Origin: an uncultured Planctomycetota bacterium
Lineage (GTDB): Bacteria; Planctomycetota; Planctomycetia; Planctomycetales; Planctomycetaceae
Direction: 5' to 3'
Length of the DNA stretch: 64,000 nucleotides
Assembly (NCBI GenBank): GCA_963761455.1
Contig: CAVXHA010000003.1
Location: forward strand, 958,036-1,022,035
Positions 612 through 64,000 of this stretch are shown here, one piece after another. Position 1 is the first letter of the stretch. Every line of letters begins with the position of its first letter. A program made the position numbers and the translations under genes. Below the pieces are notes generated by a model. It had not been told where the DNA came from. It did no database searches and was given only the letters and a program-made list of their open reading frames with translations.

Positions 612-640
612 GGCGGACGCAGTGACTCGCTGGAATGCGT

Positions 641-661
641 GGGCAAGCTGCCAGCTTGCCC
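641..661. repeat. Perfect 10+1+10 palindrome GGGCAAGCTG-c-CAGCTTGCCC between the adaptor and ATPase genes
   Basis: Read directly: 641-650 is the exact reverse complement of 652-661. It lies between the stop at 611 and the likely ATPase start. Confidence 0.8.
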
Positions 662-680
662 GAGCGGCTCCCGTGATTTA

Positions 681-1426: not shown

Positions 1427-1458
1427 CGCGGACGCACCTCCGCTCGCAAGGTCCTTCC

Positions 1459-21003: not shown

Positions 21004-23403
21004 GTGAATTTTAAGGCCGATCTGAGTGGCAACAACCGGACGATCTGACTCCCAGCCAGCGACGGGCCGTCGAACAGACGGAAGGACCCCTGCTTGGTGC
21101 TGGCCGGCCCCGGTTCCGGCAAGACACGGGTCATCACGCGGCGCATCGCCCGCATTATCGAGCAGGGGGTCGATCCGGCCCGCGTCCTGGCGATCACCTT
21201 CACCAACAAGGCGGCCGGCGAAATGGCGGACCGCGTCGCCCGGCTCTTGCCCGGACACGCGGGTCTGGATCAGCACGTTTCACCGCTTCTGCGCCGGCCT
21301 CTTGCGAGCACGGGCGAACGCGGTCGGACTCAGATCGAATTTCACCATCCTCGACGACGATGACCAGCGCCGGATCGTCCGCGGGGTCATCAAGGAGTCT
21401 GCAGTACGACCCGGTCACCTTCCCTCCCGAGCGAATTGCCGAGCGGATCAGCCGCGCGAAGAACGACCTGTTGACCGCCGAGGCATTCCGCCAAGCCCGC
21501 CAGGAGCGGATCGGCGACCTGTTCGATTCGGTCGTCGACGAAAGTCTATCCCGAATATCAGCGTCGCCTGAGGGAATCGAACGCGGTCGACTTTGACGAC
21601 TTGCTGCTGGACGTCGTGCAGATTCTGACCGAGAACCCGGAGATCCGGCACGAGCTCGACGATCGCTTCCGCTACGTGCTCGTCGACGAATACCAGGACA
21701 CGAACCTCGCGCAATACCAGATCATCGCCGGCCTTTCGCACGATTATCCCAACTTGTGCGTGACGGGCGATCCCGATCAATCGATTTACGGCTGGCGTGG
21801 GGCGCGGATCGAAAACATCCTGCGGTTTGAGGCCGACTATCCGCAGGCGGCCGTCATTCGCCTGGAGGAGAATTTCCGCAGCACGAAATCGATCCTGGCG
21901 GCGGCCGACCGCTTGATCGCCCACAACGTCCGCCGCAAAGCGAAGACGATGCGGACCGAGAACCCGGAGGGGGCTCCGGTCGAAGTGCTGCGTTTCGACG
22001 ACGCACAGGCCGAAGCGGAAGGGATTGCGCGGGCGATCCGCGCGGCCGTCGAGCCGGGGCCGATGCGCTGGTGCGACGTCGCCATTTTTTATCGCATCAA
22101 CGCTCTCTCGCGGGAATTCGAAACGGCCCTGACCCGCCACCGCATTCCCTATCAAGATCGCCGGCGGGTTCGCGTTTTACGAGCGGTCCGAGGTCAAGGA
22201 CGTGCTGGCCTACTTGCGGCTGGTCGCCAATCCCCAGGATCGGCCCGCCTTTCTCCGCGTGGTGAACGTCCCCGTGCGGGGCATCGGCGACAAGAGCCTC
22301 GGAACGGCTCGTCGCCTGGGCCGAGGCGAACCGGCTGACGCTGCTCGAGGCGGCCGCCCGGGCCGACCGAATGTCCCGCAATTGCCGCGGCGGGCCGTCC
22401 AAGCGCTCGACGAGATTTGCCCGCCTGATCGCCGAGTTCAGCGACGCGCGGCTCGAATCGGTCCGCATGCTGCTCGAACGGATCCTCGACCGCAACGGGC
22501 TATCTGCCGTCGCTGAAGGCAAGCAACTCGCCGCAGGACCAGGAGCGATTGGCCAACGTCGAGGAGCTGGTCAACGCGGCCGACCCAATACGACGCCGGC
22601 GCCGACGGGAATCCGACGCTGGAAGGCTTTCTTGGAAACCACGGCCCTCGTCGCCGACGTCGACAGCGTCGACGGAGCGGCCAATCGCGTCACGCTGATG
22701 ACGCTGCATTCGGCCAAGGGGCTCGAGTTTCCCGTCGTCTATATCGTGGGAGTCGAGCAGAACCTCTTGCCGCACGAACGGGCCCTGCGCACCGACGATC
22801 CGGGCGAATACGAAGAGGAACGCCGGCTGCTGTTCGTCGGCATGACCCGGGCCCGCCAGCGGCTCTATCTCACGCGGACGCAGAAACCGCGGCAGTTCGC
22901 GGCCGATCGCTGAGCAGCATTCCCAGCGAGTTCCTGCGGGAAATCGGCGTGTCCGAGACGGTGATCCTGCCGCCCGAACGCTGCCTGGGCGGCCGATGCG
23001 CCGGACGAGGGCGAAGAGCACCCGGGCCCCGATTACGACAACGTCTCGCAGGAGTCGCCGGACGAGGACCAGCACGGCACGAGCGCCACGCCGTGGAAGC
23101 CGCGCACTGGCTTCGCCGACAATCCGTCGAACGTCCGCCCGCCATCGGCGAACGACGCCGATCGGCCTCGCTTGATCACGGGCGCCGATTTGCTGGCCGG
23201 CGCCGCGGCGCGCGCCGGCCGAGCTGCCGCTCGGTTTTGCCTTGGGCATGGCGGTCCGGCATCCCCAATACGGCGTGGGCCGCATCGTCAAAATCGGCGG
23301 ATTCGCCAAGAACCGGACGATCACCGTCGAATTCGACGATGACGGTCGCAGCGAAACGTTCGTCACGGGAAAGAATCCGCTGCAACCCGTCGGCGCCGGA
23401 TAA
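21004..23403 (+). CDS. uvrD: UvrD/PcrA/Rep-family ATP-dependent DNA helicase. About a dozen apparent frameshifts.
   Basis: Motif [15 protein letters not shown], Ia [18 protein letters not shown], motif [75 protein letters not shown], and a C-terminal Tudor-like [19 protein letters not shown]. The pieces alternate among all three plus frames. Stop at 23401-23403. Confidence 0.85.
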
Positions 23404-45096: not shown

Positions 45097-46721
<1,625 letters not shown>

Positions 46722-46782: not shown

Positions 46783-47572
46783 TCAGATCGTCATGCTCGA
46801 GAATCCGCCGTCGACGACGATGTTGGCCCCCGTCAGGAAGCTTCCGGCGTTTGGGGAGGCCAACAGGAGCAGGGCGCCGGCCAGTTCTTTGGGCAGGCCG
46901 AACCGTTTGAGAGGCGTGTGGCGCATGATATTCTCGATCCGCTCTTCGGTCAGGATGGATTTATTTTGTTCGGCAGGGAAAAACCCGGGCGACAGTGCGT
47001 TCACGCGGATGCCTAAAGGCGCCCATTCGCGGGCCAGGTTCTGCGTCAGATTGATGACGGCCGCCTTGGTTGCGGCGTACGTGAAGACGCGCGATAAGGG
47101 AGTGATCGCCGAAAGCGACGCGATATTGATAATCGAGCCGCGCGTTCCCCGCTGAATCATGTATTTGCCGAAGACCTGGCAGGCGAGCCGGACGGCGCGG
47201 CAGGTTCACGTTGATAATTCGGTCCCACTCGTCGTCGGTGATTTCGAGGAACGGCGTGGCCGCGTTGACTCCGGCGCCGTTGACGACAACGTCGGCGGCG
47301 CGGTTGGCTCGCGTCAAATGAGCGGCCACCGCCTCGAGATCCTTGCGGCTGGTGCAGTCGGCAGCCAAAAACTCGGCGCTGCCGCCGCAATCCGCGAGAC
47401 GCCCGACACAATCGCTTCCCCGATTGCGATCGCGACCAACCACGATCGCGTGCGCCCCCGCTCCCGCCAGCGCCTCGCAAAACGCGCCCCCCAGCACGCC
47501 CGTTCCGCCAATCACGACCGCCGTCCGTCCCTGCAGGCCGTAAAGCCCCTTGAGATAGGATTCAGGCGTCAT
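46783..47572 (-). CDS. Short-chain dehydrogenase/reductase (SDR). One apparent frameshift near 47185.
   Basis: [15 protein letters not shown] (TGxxxGxG), NGAG, catalytic [17 protein letters not shown]. ORFs 46961..47620 and 46783..47160. Confidence 0.85.
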
Positions 47573-47787
47573 GGAGTCTCCGGCCCGAAGAAAGGAAGAC
47601 GATGGAATTGCGTTGCGCACCGACCATCTTAATCAAAACCGGCCGGCCGGTGAAATCGAGCGTGGCTCGGGTGCAAACTATGGACGGGACTGCGAGCGGC
47701 CCCTTGTGTCATTCAATCCCGTTCCGCCAAGTGCGGGCGTCCCTACGCAGCGCTCCCTCCGGGAACGCCTGACCATCGCCATCATCA

Positions 47788-48599: not shown

Positions 48600-48824
48600 A
48601 ATCCCTCAGCGGGTTGTGGCTGGCCATCGGGGTGCATGAAGTTGCATGAATCATCCACTATCCGCCGTCGGCTGTCGATGCTGCCATCCGACAGCATCCC
48701 CGCTCTGGCTTTCGCGGATCCGTCTGCTAGGATGCAGCCAGGGTCTTCCGCTCGGTTCCTGCCGCGGAGGGCGATCGGAGACGCTCAGCGGATGATGGGG
48801 GGGAAGCGAACGAGGAGTGCAATC

Positions 48825-49460
48825 ATGCCCGTGCGATCCGCCCTCTTCGCGGCCGTTGCAAGTCTGTTCCTCGTCGGGTGCGGCTGGGGCGATCTCTTTC
48901 AATCCAGTTCGGGCAGCGAGCCCGAATTCCGCTTCAACGACGAGACCGTCGCGAACGCGTCGCCCGGCGACGCGATCTTGAATCTCGAATTCATCGACCA
49001 GGCGGGCAAAACGATCCGACCGCGCGATTTCGTTGCGAAGCATAACCTCGTCATCGTCTTCGTGAAGGGCTACAACGGCTCGATTTGCCCGTTTTGCTCG
49101 GCCTACACCTCGGGGCTGATCTCGAATTTCAAGGCAATCGCCGAGCGCGACGCCGACGTTCTCCTGGTGTATCCGATTGCCAAGCCCGACCAGTCGCAGC
49201 GTCTGGACGAATTCCTGCGGGCGACGTATCAGCGATCGTCGCCGGCCGTGAGCCAGACGCCGTTTCCCGTTGTGCTCGACGTCGGGTTGAAAGCCGTCGA
49301 TGCCCTGGGAATCCGACGGGACCTCGCTAAGCCGGCCACGTATATTCTCGACAAAAAGGGGCAGGTGCGGTTTGCCTATGTCGGCAATTCCCTGTCCGAC
49401 CGCCCGTCGATCAAGGCGATCCTCAAGCAGTTGGACGCCATCAAGCAGGAACCGAGCTGA
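48825..49460 (+). CDS. Redoxin/AhpC-TSA-family thiol peroxidase-like lipoprotein
   Basis: RBS gaggag. Lipobox LFLVGC. Thioredoxin-fold block LVIVFVKGYNGSICPFCSAY. Confidence 0.75.
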   Translation: MPVRSALFAAVASLFLVGCGWGDLFQSSSGSEPEFRFNDETVANASPGDAILNLEFIDQAGKTIRPRDFVAKHNLVIVFVKGYNGSICPFCSAYTSGLISNFKAIAERDADVLLVYPIAKPDQSQRLDEFLRATYQRSSPAVSQTPFPVVLDVGLKAVDALGIRRDLAKPATYILDKKGQVRFAYVGNSLSDRPSIKAILKQLDAIKQEPS

Positions 49461-49489
49461 CAACCGCAGCTGACACGCCCCCGTCGCCC

Positions 49490-51363
49490 ATGAACCAGAC
49501 TTCGTCGACAGCCCCGGACGCTTTTCTTGCGATGGCCCACCGTTTGTCGCTCCTGGATGAAGAGGCCGCCCGCAAGCTCGATGCCGAACGCGGCACGGCC
49601 GGCGTGTCGACGGCGCAGCTCGCCTTGAGGCACGGATTGCTCGATCCCGTTCAGATCGACATCGTCGAAACGCTTCTCGCGCCGACGAGGTCGTCCCCGG
49701 CTTTCAAATTCTCGACTTGATCGCCCAGGGGGGGATGGGAGTCGTCTTTCGCGCGCGGCAGAAAAGCCTCGACCGCATCGTGGCCGTCAAGACGATTCTT
49801 GTGAGCCAGATGCACGACCAGACGTCGCTGGCGCGGTTCGAACAGGAGGCCCTGACCGTCGCGCGGCTCCGACATCCGAACATCGTGGCCGCACACGATC
49901 TGGGGCGGCACCAGGGTCGGCTTTTTTTTGTAATGGAGCTAATCGAGGGCGAGGACGTCGAGCAGACGATCGAAAAGGAGGGACCGCTGGAGGAAGGGGT
50001 CGTCTGGAAGCTGCTGCGGCAGGCGGCCGTCGGCCTCTCGCACGCCGCCTCGGCGGGGATCATCCATCGCGACATCAAGCCGGCCAATCTCCTGCTCGTC
50101 GACCCGCCGGCCGGGTTCGAGCTGCCGGGTGGACTGAAGATGGTGAAAATCACTGACTTCGGCCTCGCCTTTCTGACGCGGGACGTCGACGTCAAGACGC
50201 GTTTGACCCAGGCCAACACGGCCATCGGCAGCCCGCATTACCTCGCTCCGGAACAACTCGAAGGCAATTCATTCGACCATCGGGTCGACATCTATTCTTT
50301 GGGAGCGACTGCCTACCACATGCTGGCAGGCGTCGCCCCCTTCCACGCGAAGACGCTGCCGCAGATTATCGCCCGGAAGCTGGCGGCCGAGTCGCTCGAT
50401 CTGCGAGCAGAGTTCTCCCACGTCTCTGCCGCGTCGGCCGAGCTTGTCCGCCGCATGACGGACCGCGATCCGGCCCGCCGCATCGCCGATTATTCCCAAC
50501 TCATTTCGCAGATCGACTCGCTGAGCCTGGCCGACTCACCGCGGGCGCCGCCGCCGCGCCCGTCATCCGCACTGGCGGCGACTCAGCTCTTCCGCACCGA
50601 TCCGACGCCCGGACAGACGGCGATCGGCACAGTCGACTTGCGACCGCCCCGCCCGCGATTGGCCGGGCGTCGGAAGTTTTTGATGGCTTTGGGAGGCGGA
50701 ACGATCGCCGCCTCGGCACTGGCTGCGGGCGCCTGGTCGCTCTGGTCGTCACGAAGTCACAAGTTGTCGCCGACACTCGTCCCCACGGGCCTCGGGCTGA
50801 GTCTGTTTGACGGCCTCAGCCTGTCCGGGTGGCGGACGCAGTCCGGCGGCTGGACCGTGCGAAGGAATTCCGAGGGAGGGCGCGTCCTTTCCGGAACGAG
50901 CGGCCGGACAAGCCACGTGCTGCTGAAACAGGTCGGCAACAAGAAAACCGCGCTGAGGCAGTTCAGCCTGTCGGTCGTCGTTCAGCTTCACGGCGCGACG
51001 GCGGCCGAGATCGAATTCGGTGCCAGCGAAGTGGACCAAGACGGCGAGCGGCTGGTCGCGCGACTCGAAAAGTTGAGCGGCAGCGTGGGACGGCGGGCAA
51101 CCGATTCGGGCACGTTCGTTCGCCTGTCGGATCTCGAAAGCCCTCTCGATCGCGCCGCGAGCGACCCTCACACGTTGACGGTCCAGCGGCAGCCCGGCTT
51201 TTGGTGGGTCTTACTCGACGAAAGCCCGATCGGCTCGGTGCCCATCCAGGCCGGGCAGCGCAGGCCGCCCTCGTTCGCTCTTGTGGCCGAGGAAGGCGAA
51301 GTCTGGTTCTCCGACATCACGCTCCAAGAACTCGCCCTGCCGCAACCGCACAGCGATTCGTAG
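49490..51363 (+). CDS. Ser/Thr kinase with one TM helix and an extracytoplasmic DUF1080/LamG-like domain. One apparent frameshift near 49690.
   Basis: GGMGVVFRA, VAVKTI, HRDIKPANLLL, DFGLA, GSPHYLAPE. TM LMALGGGTIAASALAAGAWSLW. C-terminal LFDGLSLSGWRTQSGGWTV..GEVWFSDITLQEL. Confidence 0.85.
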
Positions 51364-51826: not shown

Positions 51827-52513
51827 ATGCCACAAAAAACGACGTGGATGATCTGCGCGGCGTTGACGGTCGCCTTGGCGACGCCGGCCCTTGCGGCCGA
51901 CAATCAGCTCACTCCCGAAGAACGAGCGGCCGGCTGGCAGCTACTGTTCAACGGCAAGGACTACAGCGGCTGGCGGTGCAATAACGGCCGACCGATCGCC
52001 TCAAAAATCGAGAACGCGTCGCTCGTGCCGTACAAATCGGGCGGTTACCTCATCATCTACGAAAAAGAGTTCGGCGATTTCGTCCTGACGTGCGACGTGA
52101 AGATGGACACCGAATGCAATTCGGGTGTTTTCGTTCGCGTGGGGAATCCGAAAGACCCGGTGCAGACGGGGTTCGAGGTGCAGGTGGCGTCCGAAATCGG
52201 AACGGGCAAGCACGACTTCGGCGCACTGTACGATCTCGTCGGTCCGAAAAAAGTGCCGCGTCTTTCCGCGGATTGGAACACGATCACGGTCACCTGTCAG
52301 GGGCCGCACATCAGCGCCGCGGTCAACGGTGAAACCGTTGCGCGGCTGAACTGCGACGAATGGACCGAGCCGCATCGCTGCCCCGATGGGAGCAGGAACA
52401 AGTTTTCCCGCGCGATCAAGGACTTTCCGCGAAGAGGCTACATCGGCCTGCAGGACCACGGGCACAAGGTGTGGTTCAAGAACGTGAAGATTCGAGAATT
52501 GGCAGCGAAGTGA
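51827..52513 (+). CDS. Secreted DUF1080 (3-keto-disaccharide hydrolase-like) domain protein
   Basis: RBS caggag. Signal MPQKTTWMICAALTVALATPALA. LLFNGKDYSGWR.., NSGVFVR, FEVQV, GLQDHGHKVWFKNVKIREL. Confidence 0.85.
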   Translation: MPQKTTWMICAALTVALATPALAADNQLTPEERAAGWQLLFNGKDYSGWRCNNGRPIASKIENASLVPYKSGGYLIIYEKEFGDFVLTCDVKMDTECNSGVFVRVGNPKDPVQTGFEVQVASEIGTGKHDFGALYDLVGPKKVPRLSADWNTITVTCQGPHISAAVNGETVARLNCDEWTEPHRCPDGSRNKFSRAIKDFPRRGYIGLQDHGHKVWFKNVKIRELAAK

Positions 52514-52579: not shown

Positions 52580-54040
52580 TTATTTCGCGGCCCCTGCCGG
52601 ACGCGCTCCTGTGTTTGTGGTCTCGACCGGGACGACCTTCTCGCCCGGGAAGAGGTCGGCCGTTGGGTGCCGCACGACGAGGTCATGCGGCTGGAGACCC
52701 GAAAGGATCTCGGCCTGGACGCCGCTGTCACGGCCGACTTTGACCGGAATAAGCTGCGCAAGCCCGTTTCGCACGACATAAACCGATGTCGTTGTTCCAT
52801 CGGCGCTGCTCACCAGGCAGGTCGACGGAACGCTCAGCTCCTTGGTGGAGCGGGTCAATTGAATCGTCACGCGGCCGAACATGCCGTCGCGCAGCTCGTT
52901 GGACGTGTTTTCCAAGTCGACCTCGACCCGCATGGTCCGGTCGGTGGGGTCCAGCGAATTGCCAATCCGCGCAACCTTGGCGTGGAATTCCTTGCCGGCC
53001 AAGGCATCCAGCTCGACCACGGCGGGATCGCCGGGATCGGTGTACGGCACATAGGTCTCGGGCATCTTCAAGATCACTCGCATCTTGTCGGTGCGGGCGA
53101 CGACCAACAGCGGCGTTCCACCCCCCTGGTCGGCGGCCCGGATGAAATCTCCCACATGGAAACTGCGCTTCGTGATGACGCCGGTGTAATCTTTGGGTGC
53201 GCGGATTTCGAGGTAATCGACAAACACCTTGGCCTTCGCCAGGACGGCGTTGGCCACCTGAACTTTGGCCTTGGCATTGGCGAGGTCGGCCTGCGCTTCC
53301 ACAATCTTGGCCGTTTTTGCCGCGACTTCCGCGATGGCCGTCTGGATCGCCGCCTTCGCCGCGTTTTCGGCCGCCTGCGCGGCGTCGCGCTCCTTGAGGT
53401 TCTGGTCCACGAGTTTCTCTTCGATCGCCCTCAGGTCGTAGAGATGCCGGATGCGGTCGTACTCGATCTGACGGAACGCCAAGTAAGCCGTCTCGCGTTT
53501 CAAATCGGCCCGTTTCTCGCCGACGTTCGCCTCGGCCGCCTCCAGGTCGGCCTTTGCCCTGTCGATCCCCGCCTCCGTCAGTTTCACTTGCGATTTGGCC
53601 TGGTCGAGTTGGGCTCTGGCTTGATCGACCGCCTGCACCAGCTCCGGCGCGGAAATCTTCGCCAGCAATTGGCCGGGCTTAACGCTGTCGCCGATGTCCA
53701 CGTTCTGTTCCTGGAGGTAGCCGGAAACCTTCGCGTAGAGGTCCGCGTAATCAAACGCTTTGACCGTGCCTGGCTCCGGAACGGATCGAGCCATGTTCCC
53801 GACACCAGGGCGGATGACGTCGACCCGCATGGATGTCGTGGGGGAAGATGCGTCGGCGGTCTTCGGCGCTGCCGTCGCCGCGGCGGCCGCTGATTCCGGT
53901 CCCGGGTCACCCGCACCGTTCGTTTTCGACCAATGGAACGCGAAAATCACCAGCAGGGCAACGACGACCGCGATTCCGAGTATCCATCTTCTTCGGACGA
54001 TCTGCTGCCCGACGGACTCGATCCGAGCTTGTACGTTCAT
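52580..54040 (-). CDS. HlyD-family periplasmic adaptor (MFP) with N-terminal TM anchor and a long coiled coil
   Basis: Inner start MNVQARIE at 54040. TM WILGIAVVVALLVIFAF. Lipoyl-like VSGYLQEQNVDIGDSVKPGQLLAKISAPEL, a long Ala/Glu/Lys coiled coil, IRAPKDYTGVITKR, beta-barrel and C-terminal domain. Intact. Confidence 0.85.
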   Translation of the reverse strand: MNVQARIESVGQQIVRRRWILGIAVVVALLVIFAFHWSKTNGAGDPGPESAAAAATAAPKTADASSPTTSMRVDVIRPGVGNMARSVPEPGTVKAFDYADLYAKVSGYLQEQNVDIGDSVKPGQLLAKISAPELVQAVDQARAQLDQAKSQVKLTEAGIDRAKADLEAAEANVGEKRADLKRETAYLAFRQIEYDRIRHLYDLRAIEEKLVDQNLKERDAAQAAENAAKAAIQTAIAEVAAKTAKIVEAQADLANAKAKVQVANAVLAKAKVFVDYLEIRAPKDYTGVITKRSFHVGDFIRAADQGGGTPLLVVARTDKMRVILKMPETYVPYTDPGDPAVVELDALAGKEFHAKVARIGNSLDPTDRTMRVEVDLENTSNELRDGMFGRVTIQLTRSTKELSVPSTCLVSSADGTTTSVYVVRNGLAQLIPVKVGRDSGVQAEILSGLQPHDLVVRHPTADLFPGEKVVPVETTNTGARPAGAAK

Positions 54041-54122
54041 GGCCAATGCAATGCCTTTGTGGCGGACGGGCGGGTTCGAGCGCTTCCTATTAGATTGTAG
54101 AGGCCGGTTCAAGCCTTTGAAA

Positions 54123-55879
54123 CTACTTCGAGCGCTTGCCGTCTGTGCCCGTGCCCACTTGCAGCGGATCGGGGAGGGCCGCGCTGGGAGTCTCGCCGAT
54201 CGCGACGAAGAGCTCAAACTGGGCCATATCGTATCCGACGAGCGCGGCAATGAACTCGTCGCGGGCCTCGACTAACAGGTTGACACTATTGATTGCCTCC
54301 AGGGGCAGGGCCTCGCCGCCGCGTGTGCGGGCGATTTCTTCACGTGCCCCGGTCGCCGCCGTTTGCAACCGTCCCCGAGCCAATTCCAATTGCTGCCGCC
54401 TCGCCTCCGATTGGGCGTAGGCATCGGCCACTTCGCGGCCAATTTGGTTGAGTGCCAGGCCCCGCCGCGCCAGGGCGTCATCGCGTTCGGCCCGCCGTTC
54501 CTTTTGAATGGCCGCGTTCCCAAAGCCGAGGTTTTGGAGGGTCCAGACCGCATACACGTCGAAGTCGGTTCGGCCCGACGTCGCTTGAAACAGCAAGCCC
54601 GCCTGGTCTCCGCCCCCGCCGAAGCCCCCTGCGCTGTAGCCGACCGAAAGCAATGGCAGCCAGGGCGCGCGTATTCTTGTTTCAATCGGTATTCCGCCGC
54701 CGCAATGTCCGCCGCGCGGGCGGCCGCCTCGGGCCGAGCGTTCAATGCGATTTGAATCAGCTCTTCGACGCGATAGGTCGAATCGACCAGTTGCACGGGC
54801 TCCAGTGCGGCCCCGGCGGTCGTGAGGCGGATCGACGGATCGAGGTGGAGCGTCCGGGCCAAATCGGCCGAAGCGACCGCGACACTTTCCTGAGCCCGCT
54901 CTTCGCGGGAATGCAGCAGTAGGGCATCCGTTCGCGCCCGATTATAGTCGCCGACCCGGCCCTGCCCCGTCCGGGCGAACGCGGCGGTGGCCTGCACCAC
55001 TTGTCGAAGATTGTCCTCGGACCGCCGGATCGCTTCGAGTGCGGCTTGCGTTCCCACGAGACCGAGGTACCGCCGGGCGACATCCAACAAGACCGCGTTT
55101 TCGATGCCGTGCGAGTCGGCGCGACGGCTGTTGACGACCTGCCGGGCGACAAGGGGGGCAAAATAGACATCGCCGAGATGGCCGAACAGCTGCACCGCCG
55201 GAACGGCGACGGTTTGCGAGCCGACCGCCCAATCCCCGCCGCCGAAATAGACCGACTGCAAATCAACCTTCTCGATTTGACCATCGCCGGCTTGAAGCGT
55301 GCCTTGATGGAGATGATACATGGCTCCCGCGTTGAGCGACGGAAGCATCATCGCGCGGGCCTGAAGCTGGAGAGCCAGCGCCTCCTGGATCGCCTCGCGC
55401 CCCAGCGCGATCGTCGGATTCTCGGCCTCGGCCAAGCGCAAGACCGTGGAAAGGTCGACCGTGTACTCTTCCCCCGTCACGGGGACGATCTCCTCCCGCG
55501 ACAACCCCGCCAGCTCGTTCCCAATGCGGGCGGCCTTTTGCAGAGGCCGCGCTTCTTGTGGTGTGGAAATGCCACCTGGAGATCGCAGGTCATCAAGGGT
55601 TGGGCCCGCCGCGGGATCAGCAGGGGGCGCCGGCGGAGGAGGGAGAAGGTCGATGACCACAAACCGCCCCCCTCCCGCTTCAATCTTTAGTTCTGACGTC
55701 GCAGCCTGGTCGGCGCCGTGAGCATGTCCGGCCCGCAGTCCCGCAACGCAAAGCGCGGCCAAGCAGATGCCGGCGACAAACGTCCACCGAGACCAAGCCC
55801 TCCGCCAACCGGCGGTCCTGGCAAAGATCGATTTGGAGCAAGTCTGCGGCATCATGAGCGTGGGCCGTACGCAAATCAC
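54123..55879 (-). CDS. TolC-like outer membrane factor, paralog 1. One apparent frameshift near 54660.
   Basis: YTVDLSTVLRLAEAENPTIALGREAIQEA..LPSLNAGA.. and a second repeat ..LIQIALNARPE.. then ..VGYSAGGFGGGGD..VWTLQNLGFGN..EAINSVNLLVEARDEFIAALVGYDMAQFELFVAIG. ORFs 54272..55879 and 54123..54653. Confidence 0.8.
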
Positions 55880-55897
55880 AGGCGCGAGTATTCCCTG

Positions 55898-57556
55898 TCA
55901 GCGGGGAGCCGGCGGCGGCATCCGCGCTGGGGATTGTCGTGCGGCTGGGTCCTGTCCGTTTTCATCGGCGGGTCGAACCAGAACGTCCGCGGGAGGCTTT
56001 CCGAGGGCGACATACAGCTCGAACTGAGCCCGGTCGTAGTCGAGAATGGTATTGAGGTAAGCGACGCGAGACCGCGACAAGAGGCGCAGACTGTTGAGCA
56101 CCTCCAAGGGGATCCCGATCTGTCCCATGATGCGGCGCAAGTCTTCCTGATACGCCTCGGTGCTCGATTGGATCGCCAGCTCGCACGTCCGCATCTGGGC
56201 GAAACGGGCGTGCGTTTTGGCGTAGGCGTCGGCCACTTCGGACCGGATCTGATCGAGCGTGGCAGTCTCCTGAAGATCCGTGCTGCGCAGCCGGCTGTGG
56301 GCCGCGTCGATCGAGCGCCCGGTTCCCGATCCCTAAATTCAAAACGGTCCAATAGGCCATCACGTCGAGATCCTGTCGCGGACTGCACGAGTCCGAACCG
56401 TGGATCGCCGAGCGCGTCAGTGCCTGACCCGACCGGTTGCGCGACGAGATTGCTCCCTCCGCCAAAGTCGCCCGCGCTATAACCGATGTAAACGGTCGGC
56501 GAGAACGGCAGCCAGTGCGCCTGATCCAGAGCTTCAAGCGCCTGTACGACCGCCGTTCGCCGCTCTTTCAGCTCCGGCCGGTTCAAGAGTGCGATCGCCA
56601 GCAGTTCCGGCAGGGGAATCGGTTCGGGGACGATCGATTTCGGAAGGACTTGATCGTCGACGGGGTGCAGCCGTAGCGAAGGATCGAGGTGCAAAAGCCG
56701 GCACAGCCGCGCCGATGTCGTGCCGATGTCTCCTTCCATCTGGATGACGATGGCCTCGCGGCGTGCCAGCTCGGTGGCAGCCCGGTCCGCGTCGGCCTTG
56801 CGCCCCTGTCCCGCCTTCAAATAGGCCGCCGTCAGGCGGGCCAATTCGCGTGCGTCGTCCCGCGTGAGCAGGCGCCACGGCGTGCTGCCCCTCGGCGCGC
56901 ACCAGCTCGATGTAGCCCAAGGCCACCGCCAGCAGTGTGTCCTGAGAGACGCACTGCGCTCTCGAATCCGCGGCGGTTAACCTCTTGCCGGCTGATGAGA
57001 TAGGCGAAAAGGATCTGCGACACGTTACCGGTGAGCACGACCCCGGGAATCTGCACCGTTCCCCCGGCGACCGCCAATGCGCCCGCGCCGACGTACAACG
57101 CATCGCGATTGACGTTGAGAATCGTTCCATTCGAGTCCTGCAGCACGCCTCGATGCGAATCGAGGTTCGACCCGGCATTGAGCGTCGGCAGGAATTGGGC
57201 CGCCGCGAGCTGACGCAGTGCCACCGCTTCGAGCACGCGTTGTTGCGCAAGAGAATTTGCGAGTTCTGCACGCCGGCCAGCCGCAGCGCGCTCGACAAAT
57301 CGATCGGCGTGAGGTTCGTCTGCAGGTACTGCTTCAACAACTCGTCATCGGCCCCCGCCGGAGAAGAGACCGCCGCGAGTCCCAAGCACGAAATCCCAAT
57401 GACGAAAGAAATCCGAAGTACGAAGGACCAAAGCCCACGGAAGTCGCGGCACGTGCGCGGGCCCGCGGCGAGGCGCAACAAGGCAATCGCGCGCTCTCCG
57501 ACGGTCGCCCTGCGCTCCAGAACTTCGTGCTTCGTACTTGGGATTTTCTTCGTCAT
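55898..57556 (-). CDS. TolC-like outer membrane factor, paralog 2. About 5 apparent frameshifts. Start uncertain (the ATG lies inside a REP element).
   Basis: IDLSSALRLAGVQNSQIL.., LPTLNAGSNLDSHRGVLQDSNGTILNVNRDALYVGAGALAVAGGTVQIPG.., ..LPELLAIALLNRPELKERR..FSPTVYIGYSAGDFGGGSN.., ..LEVLNSLRLLSRSRVAYLNTILDYDRAQFELYVALG. Stitched from ORFs 56534, 56832, 55876 and 55898. Confidence 0.75.
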
Positions 57557-57573
57557 TCGTGCTTCGGATTTCG
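57381..57573. repeat. REP-like inverted repeat (same motif family as 23407-23541) overlapping the 5' end of the TolC paralog 2 ORF
   Basis: The left arm ..aatgacgaaagaaatccgaagtacgaagg (to 57426) pairs with the right arm cttcgtgcttcgtacttgggattttcttcgtcatt.. (from 57523). The arms are about 100 nt apart. Confidence 0.75.
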
Positions 57574-57590
57574 CCTTCTTGGCCGACTGC

Positions 57591-59110
57591 CTATTTCGGC
57601 AGTAGGATCTGGGCCGGCGGGTGCAGGAGATCGTCGGGAACCGGTCGGGCCAGCGTGTCGGCCGGCGGCGCGCCGAGCGCCACGTACAATTGAAACTCGG
57701 CTTGATCGAAGCCGATGATCGCGTCCAGGTAGTCCCTCCGGGCCGTGGCCGCTTGCCTCAGGCTGTCGAGCAGCTCGATCGGCAGCCCTTGCAGTCCGCG
57801 GATGCGAAGCAGGTCTTCCCGCATGGCGTTGGTCCCCGACCGGACGGCCTGCGCCTGGACGTCAATTTCCGCAAAGCGGGCTTGCGTGCGGACGTAAGCG
57901 GCGGCGACCTCTTCCCGCACGCGGTCCAGCACGACCATCTCTTCGAGCTGCGACTCGCCGAGCCGCGCCGGGCCGCGTCGATCAGCGCCTTATTTCCAAA
58001 CCCCAGATTCCGCAACGACCAGTAAAAAACGACGTCGACGTCGCTTCGGTCGCTGAAACTGCCGAACCGCGGCTGGCCTTCGCCGGCTCCAATGCTGCTC
58101 CCTCCGCCGAATGCCCCGTCGCTGAATCCGGCAAGCACCGTCGGCGAGAAGGGAAGCACCTTTGCCGAGTGGAGCTCGAGCAGGGCCGCCTTGATTGCCG
58201 CGCGCCGCGCCAAAAGCTCCGGGCGGTGCAACAAGGCCGTCGCCAACAACTCGGGCAGGGGAATCCCCGTCGGGACGACCGGCTCCGGAACGACTTGCGA
58301 TTCCAACGGCCGCAGGCGCGTCGTCGTTTCGAGGTTCAGCAGTTCGCACAGTCGATGCGAGGCTTGAGCCCGCCGGGCCTCCGCTTCGGCCACGACCTGT
58401 TCGCGCTGCGCCAGCTCCGTCGCCGCGCGATTGGCGTCGGCCTGCCGCCCTTGGCCCGTTCTGGCGTTGGCCGCGGTCAGGCGGGCGACTTCGCTGGCGT
58501 CATTCCGCGTGAGGATTGCCAGGCTCCGCGCTCCAGAGGCGCGGAGCAATTCCGCGTACGCCACCGCCACGTCGAGCAACACGGCGTTGTCGACGGCTTG
58601 CCGGTCGAATCGGGATTGATTCGTGATTTGCCGGCTAACCAGGTAATTGAAGATCCCCTCGGAAATGTTGATGTTGTATTGCAGTCCGGGAATCTGAACC
58701 GTTCCCGATCCGACGGCATACGCGCCGGCTCCCACGTAAAGCGCGCTGCGATTGACCGACAGGATCTCGCCGGTGGGCTGTTGCAGGACGCCCGTGTGCG
58801 AGTCGAAGTTGGTGCCGAGGTTGAGGTCCGGCAGGATCTGAGCGGCCGCCAATTGCTGACCGGCCACGGCCGCCTCGACGCGCTGTTGGGCGACCACGAT
58901 TTGCAAGTTTTGGACGCCGGCCAACCGCAGAGCCGAACTGAGATCGATCGTCGTCGGCTCATCCTCCGAGCTCGCGGCGGGTGCCGCCTCCGACGCCGGC
59001 ATCAAACGGGGCTGGTCGCCCGCCAGCGCGCACGACGCTCGCGGACTGCACTCGAAAGCCATTCCGGCGAGGAGGATCAGTAAACCAGTCCTGCCCGGAC
59101 TCATCTTCAT
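57591..59110 (-). CDS. TolC-like outer membrane factor, paralog 3. One apparent frameshift near 57960.
   Basis: Signal MKMSPGRTGLLILLAGMAF. IDLSSALRLAGVQNLQIVVAQQRVEAA..LPDLNLGTNFDSHTGVLQQPTGEILSVNRSALYVGAGAYAVGSGTVQIPG.., ..LPELLATALLHRPELLARR..FSPTVLAGFSDGAFGGGSS.., ..IELLDSLRQAATARRDYLDAIIGFDQAEFQLYVALG. Confidence 0.85.
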
Positions 59111-59407
59111 AGGGACGCCCGTACACTTTTTGATTCAGCGAGTGGGCCGCGGAAGGCGCGGACCCCGGCTTTTCGGCGCGTGGAAGTGCCTCATCAGGTC
59201 ATCGGCCGAATCAACTTGCCGAATTTAACGATTCTGCCGATTTTGACGGCCGACGACTCTGAGAGGGCCATTCGGGGAATCGCCGGAACCGCGAAGAGAG
59301 CGATTCAGGCCAACGCAGAAGGCGCGACGCACTTGCGGGCAAGCCGGCAGCCGCCCCCACGAGGCTGGCCCTTGTGTCGCCTTTTTCGACTGGCTTACGC
59401 TTGTTCT

Positions 59408-60073
59408 ATGTGGGGAGGCGTGCTGGAACAGGCCAATTCGATGTATCAGGGCGGCGACACGACCCAGTTTCAACGCCTGCTCGACGGCTGGGCCGCCGGC
59501 GATGACGCTGCGCGGAACCAACTCCTCGAACGGGCCGCACAGCGGCTGCTGAAACTCACACGCCGCATGCTCCACAACTATCCGCATCTGCGCCGCTGGG
59601 AAGAGACCGACGATGTTTTTCAGAATGCAATTTTGCGGCTCTACCGTTCGCTCGGCGACGTCCGGCCCGATTCGGTCCGCGGATTTTTCGCGCTGGCGGC
59701 AACGCAGATCCGCAGAACGCTCATCGACCTGGCGCGGCACCATTTTTGCCCCGAGGGCTCGGCCGCCCGCCATCACAGCGACGTTGGCTCCTCCGACGCC
59801 TCGGCTGGGAAGACCGACTCGCGAATGGCCGGCGCCGACGAGCCGCCCGAAACGTTGGACGCCTGGGCCCGGTTCCACGAAGCCGTCGAACTGCTCCCCA
59901 CCGAGGAGCGCGACGCCTTCAGCCTGATCTGGTACGGCGAAGCGACGCAAAAGGAGGCCGCCGCGCTTCTGGGGATTTCTGAACGGACCGTTTTGCGGCG
60001 CCTCGTCCGTGCCCGCCTGCAGTTATACGAATCACTCAAAAATGCCCGCGCTACCTTCGAGGAGGCGAATTGA
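59408..60073 (+). CDS. ECF-type RNA polymerase sigma factor (PF07638-like, the kinase-associated type)
   Basis: DTTQFQRLLDGWAAGDDAARNQLLERAAQRLLKLTRRML.., region 2 DDVFQNAILRLYRSL, region 4 HTH TQKEAAALLGISERTVLRRLVRARLQL. An alternative start is at 59441. The long ORF from 59180 is probably an over-extension. Confidence 0.85.
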   Translation: MWGGVLEQANSMYQGGDTTQFQRLLDGWAAGDDAARNQLLERAAQRLLKLTRRMLHNYPHLRRWEETDDVFQNAILRLYRSLGDVRPDSVRGFFALAATQIRRTLIDLARHHFCPEGSAARHHSDVGSSDASAGKTDSRMAGADEPPETLDAWARFHEAVELLPTEERDAFSLIWYGEATQKEAAALLGISERTVLRRLVRARLQLYESLKNARATFEEAN

Positions 60074-60076
60074 AAG

Positions 60077-60190
60077 ACACGAAGCACGAAATCTGAATGA
60101 CGAAGGAAGTCCGAATGACCGAACAATCGAAATAAAAGGTCAGCCGAGGGTCAGTGCTGCTTTTCATCCGTGCTTCGTGCTTCGGATTTG
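60077..60190. repeat. REP-like element (CGAAGCACGAA / GAATGACGAA vocabulary) between the ECF sigma and kinase genes
   Basis: gacacgaagcacgaaatctgaatgacgaaggaagtccgaatgacc ... catccgtgcttcgtgcttcggatttgatt. It shares motifs with the elements at 23407 and 57381. Pairing is imperfect. Confidence 0.65.
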
Positions 60191-60234
60191 ATTGATCGGG
60201 AGAGGCATGCCCGTTTTCGAAGAGGTGAGCTGCG

Positions 60235-63200
60235 ATGGCCGTTGACGATCGACTGAGTGATTTGCTCGTGGAATGGGAACAAGGGCGGCGGAGCGGTCAG
60301 GAGCCGTCGCTCGAGGAGCTGTGTCGCGACACGCCCGATCTGCTTCCCGTGGTGAGGGAGTCAATCGATTCCCTCAAGGCGACCGACTGGATGTTCGGCC
60401 CGGAGCCGAGTGATTTTTCTTCTTCGGAGTCTTCGGTTGCCGATTCCGAGCGCGCCGCCTTGCACGACACGGAGCTGCCCGCGTCGCACCTCACGGTGCA
60501 GGAGTTCGCGGCGTCGATTTTTCAAAGCGGTCTGTTGTCGCGGGCCGAGATCGACGAGCTGAAAGAGCGTCTCGACGCCAGTGCGTTGCCGGGCGAGGCG
60601 CGCGAGATCGCCTCGAAACTCGTGACCGAAGGCAAACTCACGCGATACCAGGCGGCCGTGCTGCTCAAGGCGTCGAAGAATCCGCTGTTGGTCGATAACT
60701 ATGTGATCCTCGACACGCTCGACACGGGGGGCATGGGGCTGGTCTTCAAGGCGCTGCACCGGTCGATGAACCGCGTCGTCGCGCTCAAGCTTTTGCCCGC
60801 CTCGATGATGAGTGCCCGCGACACCGTGAAACGCTTCCAGCGCGAGGTGCAGGCGGCCGCCGCGCTCAAGCATCCCAACATCGTTGCCGCCTACGATGCC
60901 GACGAATCCGAAGAGATCGCCTACCTCGTGCTGGAATACGTCGAGGGGACCAACCTCTTCCGGTTGGTGAAAGAAGAGGGGCCGCGCTCGCTCGCTCAGG
61001 CCGCCGACTACGTCCGCCAGGCGGCGACCGGCCTGGCGTACCTGCACTCTCGCGGCATCATCCACCGCGACGTCAAGCCGGCCAACCTGATCCTGGCCAA
61101 CGACGGCACGGTCAAGCTCTTGGACATGGGACTCGTGCGGTTCGCATCCTCCGAAGATCTCTCCTGCGCCGAGATGGACCAGGAGCTGACGCAAGCGGGA
61201 ATCGTGATCGGCACAGTCGCCTACATGTCGCCCGAACAGGCGCTCGACACGCGCTCCGCCGATCAGCGGTCGGACATCTATAGCCTGGGCTGCACGCTCT
61301 TTTTCCTGCTCACGGGCCGATCGCTCTACCACGAGGAAACCGGCATGAAGACGCTCTTGGCCCACCGCGAGCAGCCGGTCCCCTCGCTCCGCGAATTCTG
61401 CGAAGAGGCCCCGGTCTCGCTCGACGCGGTGTTCCGCACGATGGTGGCCAAGCGGCCGGCCGATCGGCTGCAAACGATGGACGAAGTCATTGCCGCCCTC
61501 GACGCCTGCGTGCCGCCGCCTGCCGCGCCGACTGGCCGTGCGGGCCGGCCTGTCCCGAGCGCACCGCCGCTGCGAACACGGACGGATCGCGACCGAGTGT
61601 GGCAATCGCGCCGATTCCGGATCGCCGCCGCGGTCACCGCGCTGGCCGCGGCCCTGCTCGGCAGCATCTATCTGGCGGTTATCGTCATTCGCATCAAGAC
61701 CTCGCAGGGGACAACCGAAGTCAGCGTCAACGACCCGAACGCAAAGATCGAAATCGAGTCTCAGCCCCAAGGGCCCGCCGTTTCGCAGCTTCGATCGCCC
61801 TTCGAGACGAGTCAGCCAGTCGGAAACGACCGGGATCGGAGAATCGGTCTGTCCTCCGGCATCGCGCCTGCAGCGAAGCCCAAGCCGCCGGTCCACGTCG
61901 TGACGGCGACGGTTCGCAAGGGGGACTTCGACGTCTACTTGTCGGGCCTGCAGGGCGCGGTGCGTGCCTCGCAGATCGTTTCGATCCGCACCCGGGTTGA
62001 CGGCGAGATCACCAAGGTCAATTTCACCGAAGGGCAAGTCGTTCACATGGGTGACGTGCTGTTTGAAATCGACCCCCGGCCCTACAAGATTCGATTGGAT
62101 GAAGCCGAGGCAAAGCTCGCCAAGGACAAACAATCAGTCGTGCACGCCCAAGAGGAGTTGCAAGCGGTGAAAAAATTACGCGCGAACTCCGCGGTCTCCC
62201 TGAGCGATAAGCTCGCGGCGGTCGCTCAATACGAAGGCCTCGTCAAAACCGACGGGGCGCTCGTCGAAGAGGCCCAGCTTCAGCTCAAGGGGTGCCAGAT
62301 CGTGGCTCCCATCAGTGGACGGATCGGACTCCGGGCGTTGGATAAAGGGAACATTGTTCAGGCCGCCAGCTCGACCAGGCTGGCCACCATCGCGCAGTTT
62401 CAGCCGATCGACGTCTTTTTTTCCATCCCGCAGGACCAAATCGATCGCGTCCAGCAGAAGCTGAGCTCAACAAAAGAGACCATGGTCGAAATCTGGAACC
62501 ACGGCGGCGGTGCCAAGATTGGGACGGCACGGCTTGTCGGGCTCGACAACGCGTTAAATCCGGGGACCGGAACCGTTGAGGTGAAAGCCCGTTCTGCGAA
62601 CGTCGACAATCGCTTGTTTCCCGGTGAGTTCGTGGACGTGCGGCTCCTCGTTGACACGCTGCACGACGCCGTGATCGTGCCGACGGCCGCCGTGCAGCAC
62701 GGCGACGCGGAGACGTTCGCCTACATCGTCAGGCCGGATCAGACGGTCGAGAAACGCAAGCCGATCCTCGGCCCCAGCGAGACGCAGGAGACGGTCGTGA
62801 CGAGCGGCCTCTCGCCGGGCGACGTCGTGGTCGTCGAAGGAACCGACAAGCTGTCCGACGGATTCAAGGTGGAAGCCCAAACCCCGACCGCCAATAGCAC
62901 TGCGAATCTCGATCGGCAGGTCGCCGATTGGGTGCTGGCCAATCGGGGAACCGTCAACCTCAAGGAATTTCGCGGCCGAACGTTCCAGTTCGTCGATGCG
63001 CTCCCCCCGACCGACTTTCACATTGAGACGATCAATCTGAAGGATTACGTCACCGACGATTCGCGCGGCGCGGCACCGGCGGAAGGCGTCGGCCTGCGCC
63101 GGTCCCGGTCGGGATTCGGCCGCCGCCGGCTGCGAGTCCAGAACCAGGCGGCCGGCGGCGACGAGCAGACGGGGCGGATGTTTCACCGCATCGAATTCAG

Positions 63201-64000
63201 CGAGGCCGACCTCGACCGTTTGGCGTCGTTGAAGGAATTGCGAACACTGATCTTTGCCTCATCGGCACTCACCGACGACGTCTTCAGCGCGATTGAAGGG
63301 GCTCACGAAGCTCGACGCGCTCGGATTGGAGGGCTCGAGCATCACCGATGCGGGCCTCACCTCCCTCCTGGGCATGACGGAATTGACGTATTTGGATCTC
63401 GATTCGACCGCCATCACGGATGCGGGATTGAAGGAGATCGCCAAGCTCAAGTCGTTGAATGATCTGAGTCTCGTCTCGGAAGGCGAGCGGAGCGGCCGGA
63501 TTCAGAGAACCCATCCCTCTCTTCGACTTGGCCAAACGCGCACCACGGTGAACGGCATCGACGAGCTGCAGCGGGCGCTTCCCAACTGCATCGTTTTCGC
63601 ATCGCACCTGCCCGATTTTTCGCCGGCCCCTCCCGCGCCGGGCCGCTCGGATCGTGATTGGGCCCAATGGCTGCTCCCGCCGAATCAGGGCTCCGGGAAG
63701 CACGTCTTCACCGACCTTGATCCGGAGACTGCCATTAGTTCCTTCGAGGAATTGCCTCCCGTCGATTTCCACATCGTGCAGGTCAACTTCGACCTGAATC
63801 TCATCTCGGAAACCATGCTGCGGCGGATGGCCGGCCTGGCAAAGCTCAGGGGGCTTTATTTCAAGCACCTGCCGACGTCCGCGTTTGCCGGCCTGGGCGA
63901 CCTCAAGCAGCTCGAGCACCTGTGGATCGAGGAAACCGACGCGACCGACGACGCGCTGCAAGTCCTCGGCAACCTGACCCGGCTCAAATTGCTGAAGCTG
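60235..64000 (+). CDS. Ser/Thr kinase, TM helix, MdtA/AcrA-type periplasmic adaptor (MFP) and leucine-rich-repeat region. The 3' end lies outside the window. Frame switches occur only after about 63300.
   Basis: One uninterrupted frame from 60235 to about 63300. Kinase: GGMGLVFKA, VALKLL, HRDVKPANLIL, DMGLV, GTVAYMSPEQ. TM: FRIAAAVTALAAALLGSIYLAVIVI (about 61610-61700). MFP (about 61885-62880) is colinear by eye with E. coli MdtA: [114 protein letters not shown]. LRR-like LTKLDALGLEGSSITDAGLTSLLGMTELTYLDLDSTAITDAGLKEIAKLKSL.. continues to the window end. Confidence 0.85.

Follow-up and report, generated by a model that had tools for sequence, protein, structure and literature searches.

A 64,000-nucleotide stretch of contig CAVXHA010000003.1 from an uncultured soil bacterium of the Planctomycetota (this whole stretch is called the window in the following) carries a locus at positions 52580-64000 in which three genes for TolC-family outer-membrane factors (OMFs) and a gene for a free periplasmic adaptor lie on the minus strand. 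Divergently orientated on the plus strand are the gene of an extracytoplasmic function (ECF) sigma factor and a gene encoding a Ser/Thr kinase (STK) fused to an adaptor domain and leucine-rich repeats (LRRs). With a probability of roughly 0.55, the locus consists of two modules that were juxtaposed by rearrangement: a functional accessory operon of the resistance-nodulation-division (RND) type, which uses a pump encoded elsewhere, and a sigma factor/kinase pair with an adaptor domain as the sensor. A pump encoded elsewhere fits best because the free adaptor passes the NCBIfam model TIGR01730, because its orthologues with 71-74% identity are part of operons with the order RND-OMF-OMF-OMF-adaptor (loci L128 and L010), and because the genes are subject to the same purifying selection as in an RND-linked locus. 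The original prediction, which was made from the DNA sequence alone, had left open whether the envelope-spanning components are repurposed or depend on a pump encoded elsewhere. The latter part holds best, whereas a role in signalling is supported for the kinase-fused adaptor domain only and not for the OMFs and the free adaptor.

According to this proposal, the OMF triplet and the free adaptor would be the accessory components of an RND-type tripartite efflux system of planctomycetes. The RND gene was probably lost from the locus in a small clade of the Planctomycetaceae; the four remaining genes are real and selected. The OMFs and the inner-membrane-anchored adaptor might still form an outer-membrane duct serving a transporter encoded elsewhere. 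The second module comprises the sigma factor and a kinase with a cytoplasmic Hanks-type domain, a single transmembrane (TM) helix, and a periplasmic AcrA/MdtA-like domain with an LRR array. Its adaptor domain could act as a sensor by engaging the efflux machinery (pump and/or channel) or the cargo; the kinase may activate the sigma factor by phosphorylation, and the sigma factor may regulate its own gene from a motif at 59374-59402.

The OMF triplet-adaptor operon and the absence of a pump gene

Pfam and NCBIfam assignments support the gene content of 52580-64000. They agree with the earlier calls of three OMFs and a HlyD adaptor on the minus strand and of the divergent ECF sigma factor and kinase-adaptor-LRR genes on the plus strand (Table 1). 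In the direction of transcription, the operon reads OMFa, OMFb, OMFc, and adaptor, with intergenic gaps of 34-88 nt. All three OMFs exceed the gathering score of the Pfam family OEP. The intact OMF orthologues of L127 cover most of TIGR01844, yet score below its cutoff. For OMFa, a weak match to OprN was obtained in the PDB. The adaptor gene is the last gene of the operon, and its open reading frame (ORF) is intact. Its start was set to position 54040 by the orthologue in L002, which yields a protein of 486 amino acids compared with 556 amino acids of the complete ORF. The protein is identical to the database protein P0121; it is anchored by a TM segment at its N-terminus and has a long coiled-coil hairpin. 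Its nearest PDB matches are TriAB, MexJ, and MacA, the best being a TriA-TriB fusion (6vej). Judged by its profile scores, the free adaptor is of the RND type.

The operon resembles RND tripartite pumps such as AcrAB-TolC and MexAB-OprM in that an inner-membrane-anchored RND-type adaptor and OMFs of the TolC/OEP family are encoded in one operon, and in that orthologous operons of relatives include an AcrB-family RND gene. It differs from these systems in the lack of an RND gene in cis in the window's clade, in the presence of three conserved OMF paralogues rather than one or none, and in the much longer coiled-coil region of the adaptor. No ABC exporter as in type I secretion (HlyB-HlyD-TolC) is encoded in the locus, and the adaptor reaches 19 bits on TIGR01843 (cutoff 209). 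Likewise, no MacB (ABC_tran with MacB_PCD/FtsX) as in MacAB-TolC is encoded with the adaptor, and an operon that combines a pair of free adaptor genes with an RND transporter gene, as in TriABC, is absent from the locus. The pump TriABC-OpmH of Pseudomonas aeruginosa uses two different adaptors (PMC8277102). Two dissimilar adaptor-type polypeptides are encoded in the locus, too, but the second is a domain of the Ser/Thr kinase encoded on the opposite strand, shares only 25% identity with the free adaptor, and is not accompanied by an RND gene.

It had been claimed that no pump is encoded from 48.8 kb to the window end. Between approximately 40 and 64 kb, no transporter gene was detected by Pfam, tblastn, or a TM screen, and all sizeable ORFs at 41-52.5 kb received non-transporter Pfam assignments. 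When Pfam-verified RND, ABC-2, and ABC-exporter references were used as tblastn queries against the whole window, the sole transporter match was a MacAB-like system at 0.3-2.7 kb (ATPase at 765-1423), as expected from the earlier observation that MacB-like genes are located far from the locus. The MacB-like genes are confined to 0.6-2.7 kb and accompanied by their own adaptor at 267-611. An RND homologue was found neither in the 64-kb window nor in the 22-kb sister locus L001, and the ABC-2 transporter of the relatives has no orthologue in the window (tblastn). The hydrophobicity screen revealed no ORF with four or more TM segments at 30-64 kb; the only window ORF with at least four predicted TM segments encodes an ABC-importer permease (28.4-29.5 kb).

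The sequence beyond position 64000 was judged from the sister assembly L001, which shares 97.3% identity with the window and nearly 100% over its last 2.5 kb, and from the relatives L003 and L005. In L001, the LRR gene ends approximately 1.6 kb past the window and is followed by an IS200-type transposase, rpoD, citrate synthase, and an LPG-synthase-like gene. The rpoD-citrate synthase-LPG synthase continuation was also found in L003 and L005. A pump gene immediately downstream of the kinase gene, which the original prediction had named as one of two refuting observations, is present neither in L001 (covering 9 kb beyond the window) nor in L003 and L005.

For the comparison with relatives, 117 loci around adaptor homologues were collected from GTDB genomes and JGI metagenomes, and four more loci were obtained by exact look-up. 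The loci were annotated by tblastn with Pfam-verified references, and the identity of RND genes was checked by Pfam ACR_tran. In 63 loci, the sequence extends for 5 kb or more to either side; among these, an RND gene is located within 5 kb of the adaptor in 45 cases and within 10 kb in 52 cases. In L128 (Illumina; 74% adaptor identity), rpoD is followed by RND-OMF-OMF-OMF-adaptor, and the order in L010 (71%) is identical. In distant Planctomycetota (L028, L029, and L089; 43-50% adaptor identity), an RND gene on the minus strand is divergent from the OMF triplet and adaptor. Genuine two-adaptor RND operons are found in the relatives L029 and L065. A subgroup with 55-64% identity (L011-L017 and L081-L084) has adaptor and RND genes that are convergent on opposite strands and about 100 nt apart; this layout is unusual for a cognate pair and is kept across many metagenome-assembled genomes (MAGs).

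Besides the window (54123-59110), OMF triplets are present in L125, L127, L128, L029, L028, L089, L010, and L008. Across loci, OMFa, OMFb, and OMFc are orthologous in a 1:1:1 manner (56-88% identity at the same position vs. 29-56% between positions), so the triplet is old and ordered. In characterised OMFs, the channel is described as a trimer of a single gene product. The fixed order of the triplet raises the possibility of hetero-oligomeric TolC-like channels and makes them a testable question. OMF pairs were observed at many Isosphaeraceae loci.

The loci without an RND gene within 10 kb are those of the window's clade, a separate group with 51-52% adaptor identity (L018, L019, L021, and L085), and L072 and L076. 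The window's clade also includes L008. The neighbourhood is conserved, contrary to the second observation that would have refuted the original prediction: L001, L003/L049, and L127 (an Illumina contig) share the arrangement of the window. In L125, the order is rpoD, OMF triplet-adaptor, DUF1080, and an ABC-2 block, and of the operon only the adaptor is present in L002/L009 and L080. Between rpoD and OMFa, L128 has the RND gene, L125 has no gene, and the window, L001, and L003 have the sigma factor and kinase genes on the opposite strand. In L127, these genes are likewise divergent from OMFa, with rpoD outside the visible contig. In terms of gene order, the pump-less operon is a derived state in a small clade of the Planctomycetaceae.

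Transposase genes were detected between the LRR gene and rpoD (IS200/Y1 at 15023-15475 in L001 and DDE at 15657-17036 in L003). The contig ends of the related Illumina loci L004 and L128 carry a palindromic repeat, GGGGAGAGGGG/CCCCTCTCCCC; these two loci stem from one sample, and their contig ends have only a 44-nt palindromic repeat in common; a join of the two would place the kinase and an RND operon in one genome. The transposases and palindromic repeats fit the view that the slot of the RND gene is a rearrangement hotspot.

All four operon genes are intact in L125 and L127, both of which are Illumina contigs. The dN/dS values of OMFa, OMFb, OMFc, and the adaptor are 0.11-0.16 between these two pump-less loci and 0.12-0.17 in comparison to the RND-linked L128. 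Because the values equal those obtained against the RND-linked locus, the pump-less operon is, by this estimate, under purifying selection and not decaying. The operon thus lends itself to testing whether adaptors strictly require a pump gene at their own locus.

Several reading frames of the locus are interrupted by one-base indels, which had been overlooked in the original prediction. One is located in OMFa (57968/9), at least four in OMFb, one in OMFc (~54663), and one in the LRR part (~63285). The OMF frames were assigned by homology; a hybrid reconstruction from the longest ORFs was dropped as misleading in high-GC DNA. After one base is restored at 57969, OMFa comprises 506 amino acids with 88% identity to the intact L125_a. 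OMFc, read across two frames, is 86% identical to the intact L125_c. The frame changes in OMFb were placed near 57300, 56950-57010, 56385, and 56320 by tblastn with the intact L003 and L125 orthologues and match indel differences to L001 at 57248, 56950, 56873, and 56312. Altogether, the window and L001 differ by 48 one-base indels over 12.8 kb, and the window frameshifts at 57969, 57248, 56950, 56873, 56312, and 63285 fall exactly on such differences. The indels of L001 form another set, with one of them in the adaptor gene, which is intact in the window; the OMFa indel at 57969 is not present in L001. One frameshift is common to both assemblies, a change from CCCC to CCC in GCGCGCCCC (OMFc, ~54663). 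The indel contexts are often GCGC or C-runs. Further genes are split, namely, uvrD and genes for an ABC ATPase, an SDR protein, and a flavoprotein in the window, and citrate synthase in L001. Stretches with split genes include 639-1426, 21475-22910, 45097-46721, and 46783-47620 in the window and 18901-20042 in L001.

The source assembly is a long-read MAG with a source contig of 1,356,430 bp; both "MFD" isolate names and Flye-style contig names are found among its relatives. The OMF and LRR frameshifts look like nanopore assembly errors because they occur in such a long-read MAG, housekeeping genes are split as well, the indel sets differ between the sister assemblies, the shared indel lies in a CCCC run after GCGCGC, and every locus gene is intact in the Illumina-derived relatives. 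Pseudogene calls anywhere in the source contig are unsafe. In nanopore-only MAGs like the source, with about one indel per 300-1000 bp, intact operons can mimic pseudogenes.

The sigma factor/kinase pair and its adaptor domain

The start of the sigma factor gene at 59441 was fixed by the alignment of homologues (MYQGGDTT is conserved, and stop codons lie upstream in relatives). On TIGR02999, the sigma factor scores below the cutoff. The kinase gene begins 161 nt after the sigma factor gene, and neither an ORF between the two nor an anti-sigma factor gene was found. The sigma factor gene is located upstream of the kinase gene in all seven sigma-bearing loci with a visible upstream region. STK-linked ECF groups include the planctomycetal groups ECF59-62 and ECF217, and phosphorylation was shown for EcfP-PknT and EcfK-PknS (PMC7826278, PMC8999054). 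The locus shares with these pairs (EcfP-PknT of V. parahaemolyticus, ECF43; EcfK-PknS of Xanthomonas; ECF59-62; ECF217) the position of the sigma factor gene directly upstream of a membrane-spanning Hanks-type kinase and the lack of an anti-sigma factor, and with the planctomycetal groups the PF07638 type of the sigma factor. By its organisation, the pair is of the known planctomycetal ECF-STK type without anti-sigma factor. Unlike in the described pairs, the periplasmic part of the kinase is an efflux adaptor followed by LRRs. In EcfP-like factors (ECF43), the acidic DAED motif of sigma region 2.2 has given way to a phosphorylatable Ser/Thr motif, which in EcfP is the uncharged STTA (PMC8999054). 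At the presumed DAED position in this region, aligned by eye to the description in PMC8999054, the sigma factor of the locus reads WEETDDVFQ, i.e., ETDD, which is acidic with one Thr. This suggests that it is not ECF43-like and is nearer to the planctomycetal STK-linked groups.

The kinase protein consists of the kinase domain (60703-61476), the TM helix (61615-61689, residues 461-485), the adaptor domain (61858-62889), and LRRs from about 63190. As deduced from the sister assembly, the full protein has approximately 1800 amino acids and ends near the window equivalent of 65.6 kb. The catalytic motifs (the Lys of VALK, HRD, and D(M)G) are present, and a single TM helix was found. The adaptor domain aligns end to end and without large gaps to AcrA residues 38-383 (E 2e-33), covers positions 48-391 of 392 of the NCBIfam MdtA/MuxA model (E 2e-89), and reaches 208 bits on TIGR01730 (cutoff 94.9). 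The best PDB folds for an AlphaFold2 (AF2) model of this part (pLDDT 66, medium confidence) are AcrA, TMexC, and MexA. On the basis of these alignments, the ectodomain is a complete RND adaptor domain that continues into a long array of LRRs. The kinase-TM-adaptor-LRR architecture was found in nine protein clusters (P0001-P0009, 1203-1785 amino acids) and in a protein of 2061 amino acids in L127. Paralogues whose kinase half is 74-79% identical lack an adaptor domain and have LRRs or, rarely, FliL or FGE-type domains; therefore, the adaptor domain was inserted into a kinase-LRR scaffold.

An exhaustive search with the adaptor domain covered 1.84 billion representative proteins, and the nearest 150 relatives were inspected. 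Nearly all of them are ordinary free adaptors of 370-770 amino acids. Exceptions are kinase fusions, one adaptor-adaptor fusion (P0381, 769 amino acids), and one fusion with an M56 peptidase (P0414, 723 amino acids). P0414 combines a BlaR1-type M56 peptidase with an RND-type adaptor domain and shows, by its domain composition, that a second kind of signal transducer independently carries such a domain. Similar to the kinase of the locus, it carries an extracytoplasmic RND-type adaptor domain (41% identity to that of the kinase) on a membrane transducer. It differs in its output, which is an M56 peptidase instead of a kinase, in the lack of LRRs, and in the retention of R and L in the hairpin tip. 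The RLS motif of the hairpin tip is kept in the five nearest free adaptors; in the kinase of the window, R is replaced by A, and in the closest homologue, P0001, the tip is deleted.

Efflux adaptors are commonly seen as pump components with a structural and allosteric role. By analogy to transporter-coupled kinases, the adaptor domain of the kinase may report the state of efflux assemblies. In the BceS-BceAB flux-sensing modules of Firmicutes, the histidine kinase BceS lacks a sensor domain and binds the ABC transporter. The likeness is a functional analogy and concerns the proposed mechanism only: the kinase would receive its input through physical association with transport machinery and not through a dedicated ligand-binding domain. 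In contrast to BceS, the locus encodes a Ser/Thr kinase with a covalently fused adaptor domain. The occurrence of adaptor domains on a Ser/Thr kinase and, separately, on a BlaR1-type transducer suggests that bacteria can read the state of the efflux machinery directly, and the adaptor as sensor would, if true, be a new input class for ECF/STK signalling. A more specific version, which we regard as speculative and rather unlikely, assumes that the kinase-fused domain is a "pump-state" sensor inserting into or competing for tripartite assemblies (OMFa, OMFb, and OMFc, the free adaptor, and a trans pump), by which occupancy or flux would be converted into sigma factor phosphorylation; in parallel, OMFa, OMFb, and OMFc would form an obligate heterotrimeric channel. 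If true, such a sensor would represent a previously undescribed coupling of efflux machinery to transcription.

All building blocks of the locus are from known families. No prior description of kinase-adaptor fusions, heterotrimeric OMFs, or planctomycetal efflux was found in the literature searched, in which the adaptor-as-sensor kinase, the conserved OMF triplet, and the selected pump-less operon appear to be undescribed.

Upstream of the sigma factor gene, the 29-nt motif GTGTCGCCTTTTTCGACnnGCTTACGCTT (window 59374-59402) was identified. It occurs once per locus and always about 40 nt upstream of the sigma factor start in 8 out of 8 independent sigma/kinase-adaptor loci, including the distant L007. 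The window contains one exact match, and a single hit with two mismatches is within chance expectation. The search of the intergenic region 59110-59408 for an ECF-type promoter, which had been suggested in the original prediction, thus has a candidate in this motif, possibly autoregulated, in front of the sigma factor gene, but no second copy above chance was found, be it directed towards the OMF operon or at any other window position. Upstream of OMFa, a block of approximately 75 nt is near-invariant in the window, L001, L003, L127, L125, and L008, and in L010 it is located between the RND gene and OMFa. Scans of the intergenic region for Rfam families, sigma-70 promoters, and terminators yielded nothing significant. 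Because the block is kept with or without adjacent sigma factor and kinase genes, the OMF operon appears to have its own control element, and the block is a candidate promoter or leader.

The OMF triplet and adaptor occur without sigma factor and kinase genes in L125, and the kinase occurs without OMFs or a free adaptor in L004, L005, and L007. Judged by gene content, the two modules are separable and coupled only loosely. Of the coupling to sigma factor and kinase claimed earlier, the adjacency stands, but the modules are separable in L125, L004, L005, L007, L002, and L080, which makes the coupling weaker than claimed.

Weighing of the explanations

Instead of two juxtaposed modules, the locus could encode a pump-less envelope-spanning signalling device, in which the three OMFs would join with both the free and the kinase-fused adaptor to form a TolC-like duct without a transporter at its base; a signal from the outer membrane or the cell exterior, which the LRRs might capture, would be passed on to the kinase and the sigma factor. 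This would be in accordance with the location of the sigma factor and kinase genes in the slot of the sister operons' RND gene, with the divergent adjacency in four assemblies (window, L001, L003, and L127), with the purifying selection on the pump-less genes, and with two unlike adaptors as in TriABC-type hetero-oligomers (PMC8277102). However, L125 has the OMF triplet and adaptor with no sigma factor or kinase gene nearby, and L004, L005, and L007 have the kinase-adaptor-LRR gene without OMFs or a free adaptor. Moreover, the sigma factor gene and the OMF operon have no common promoter motif, the block upstream of the OMF operon is conserved independently of the sigma factor and kinase genes, and the hairpin-tip motif is eroded or deleted in the adaptor domain of the kinase, so that we consider such a device improbable. 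An equally low probability is assigned to the DrrAB-like ABC-2 transporter, encoded beyond DUF1080 in relatives, as the cognate pump. The block would have been displaced in the source genome and would be used in trans, or the cluster would be orphaned. ABC-2 permeases can work with HlyD-family adaptors, e.g., YbhGFSR of E. coli. In L002, L003, L004, L008, L125, and L127, genes with ABC_tran and ABC2_membrane domains, a second ECF sigma factor gene, and a gene for 151 amino acids follow DUF1080 on the strand of the adaptor, but a gene on the opposite strand lies between the block and the adaptor. The block is also present in L004, which has no free adaptor, and so does not track the adaptor; it has its own sigma factor, and the whole block is absent from the window. 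While NCBIfam types the block as DrrA/DrrB-like and, in the more distant L007, the sigma factor gene is divergent from a gene for an ABC exporter, the adaptor of the window is RND-type with 74% identity to orthologues in RND operons.

The least probable explanation, to which we give very little credence, is an inert remnant, in which the OMF genes are true pseudogenes decaying since the RND gene was lost. The observations in its favor are at least six frame disruptions over the three OMF genes of the window, the frameshift in common with L001, and the recurrence of some frameshift positions in L003. On the other hand, indels are found assembly-wide and affect housekeeping genes, too; most of their positions differ between the 97%-identical assemblies, and only single-base changes in GC or homopolymer contexts occur. 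In addition, the Illumina orthologues are intact with dN/dS values of ~0.1-0.17, and amino acid identity to intact orthologues is 83-95% across the shifted frames. The juxtaposition of an RND-type accessory operon with a sigma factor/kinase module therefore remains the preferred explanation, although several points weigh against it. Adaptors are usually encoded beside their pump, and a partnership in trans would be unusual; a candidate for the trans pump was not seen within the 64 kb examined. In the unresolved neighbour-joining tree of the adaptors, RND-containing and RND-less loci interleave, and a single loss is not established. With respect to the kinase module, the eroded hairpin tip argues against a canonical tip-to-tip docking on an OMF, and since the acidic ETDD is kept, the mechanism of the sigma factor, if controlled by phosphorylation, need not be that of EcfP.

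Feature coordinates and neighbouring genes

Table 1. Features of the locus and its border in the window (OMFa, OMFb, and OMFc correspond to OMF3, OMF2, and OMF1 of the original prediction)
Feature	Position	Strand	Evidence and remarks
DUF1080/3-keto-disaccharide-hydrolase-like secreted protein (3keto-disac_hyd)	51827..52513	+	Pfam PF06439, E 9e-40; convergent with the adaptor gene
Free periplasmic adaptor (membrane fusion protein, MFP), 486 amino acids	52580..54040	-	Pfam HlyD_D23 and HlyD_3; NCBIfam TIGR01730 RND_mfp, 205 bits (cutoff 94.9)
OMFc, TolC-family outer-membrane factor	54123..55852	-	Pfam OEP, 32.7 bits (cutoff 22)
OMFb, TolC-family outer-membrane factor	55898..57556	-	Pfam OEP
OMFa, TolC-family outer-membrane factor, first gene of the operon	57591..59110	-	Pfam OEP, 40.7 bits
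Conserved non-coding block upstream of OMFa	59170..59250, core 59215-59247	-	Conservation across relatives
Conserved motif GTGTCGCCTTTTTCGACTGGCTTACGCTT, 39 nt upstream of the sigma factor start codon	59374..59402	+	Conservation
ECF sigma factor, 210 amino acids	59441..60073	+	Pfam PF07638, Sigma70_r2, and r4_2; TIGR02937, 83.7 bits (cutoff 42.9)
Ser/Thr kinase-TM-RND-type adaptor-LRR protein, runs past the window end	60235..64000	+	Pfam Pkinase, E 1e-49; HlyD_D23, HlyD_3, and Biotin_lipoyl_2

The convergent DUF1080 gene downstream of the HlyD adaptor gene was correctly called in the original prediction. Its product shows 77% identity to the orthologue of L004, and the N-terminus resembles a signal peptide. 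In L002, L003, L004, L008, L080, L125, and L127, a DUF1080 gene is located beside the adaptor or the sigma factor gene; it is a conserved neighbour and provides context only. On the other side of the DUF1080 gene, the window contains a second Ser/Thr kinase gene (49561-51363, plus strand), whose product is 35% identical to the kinase of the locus over the kinase domain, and next to it an AhpC/TSA-like gene (48636-49460). The genes at 48636-51363 fill the slot that in relatives holds the block of the ABC-2 transporter and second ECF sigma factor beside DUF1080.

The MacAB-like system at the window start (267-2690, plus strand) comprises an adaptor, an ABC ATPase, and a MacB_PCD/FtsX permease without an OMF gene of its own, and is one conceivable user of the OMF triplet. 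In L007, the most distant kinase-adaptor-LRR locus, a gene for a half-size ABC exporter (ABC_membrane and ABC_tran; 3-1835, minus strand) is divergent from the sigma factor gene and takes the position of the OMF operon of the window.

The divergence between the window and L001 is mosaic, as seen from the comparison of 59500-61500 with 61500-64000: it amounts to 6-9% in the sigma factor and kinase domain, about 0-0.5% in the adaptor-LRR part, and 1-3% in the OMF operon. Such a pattern points to recombination or gene conversion, in which the numerous kinase paralogues of 75-79% identity were perhaps involved.

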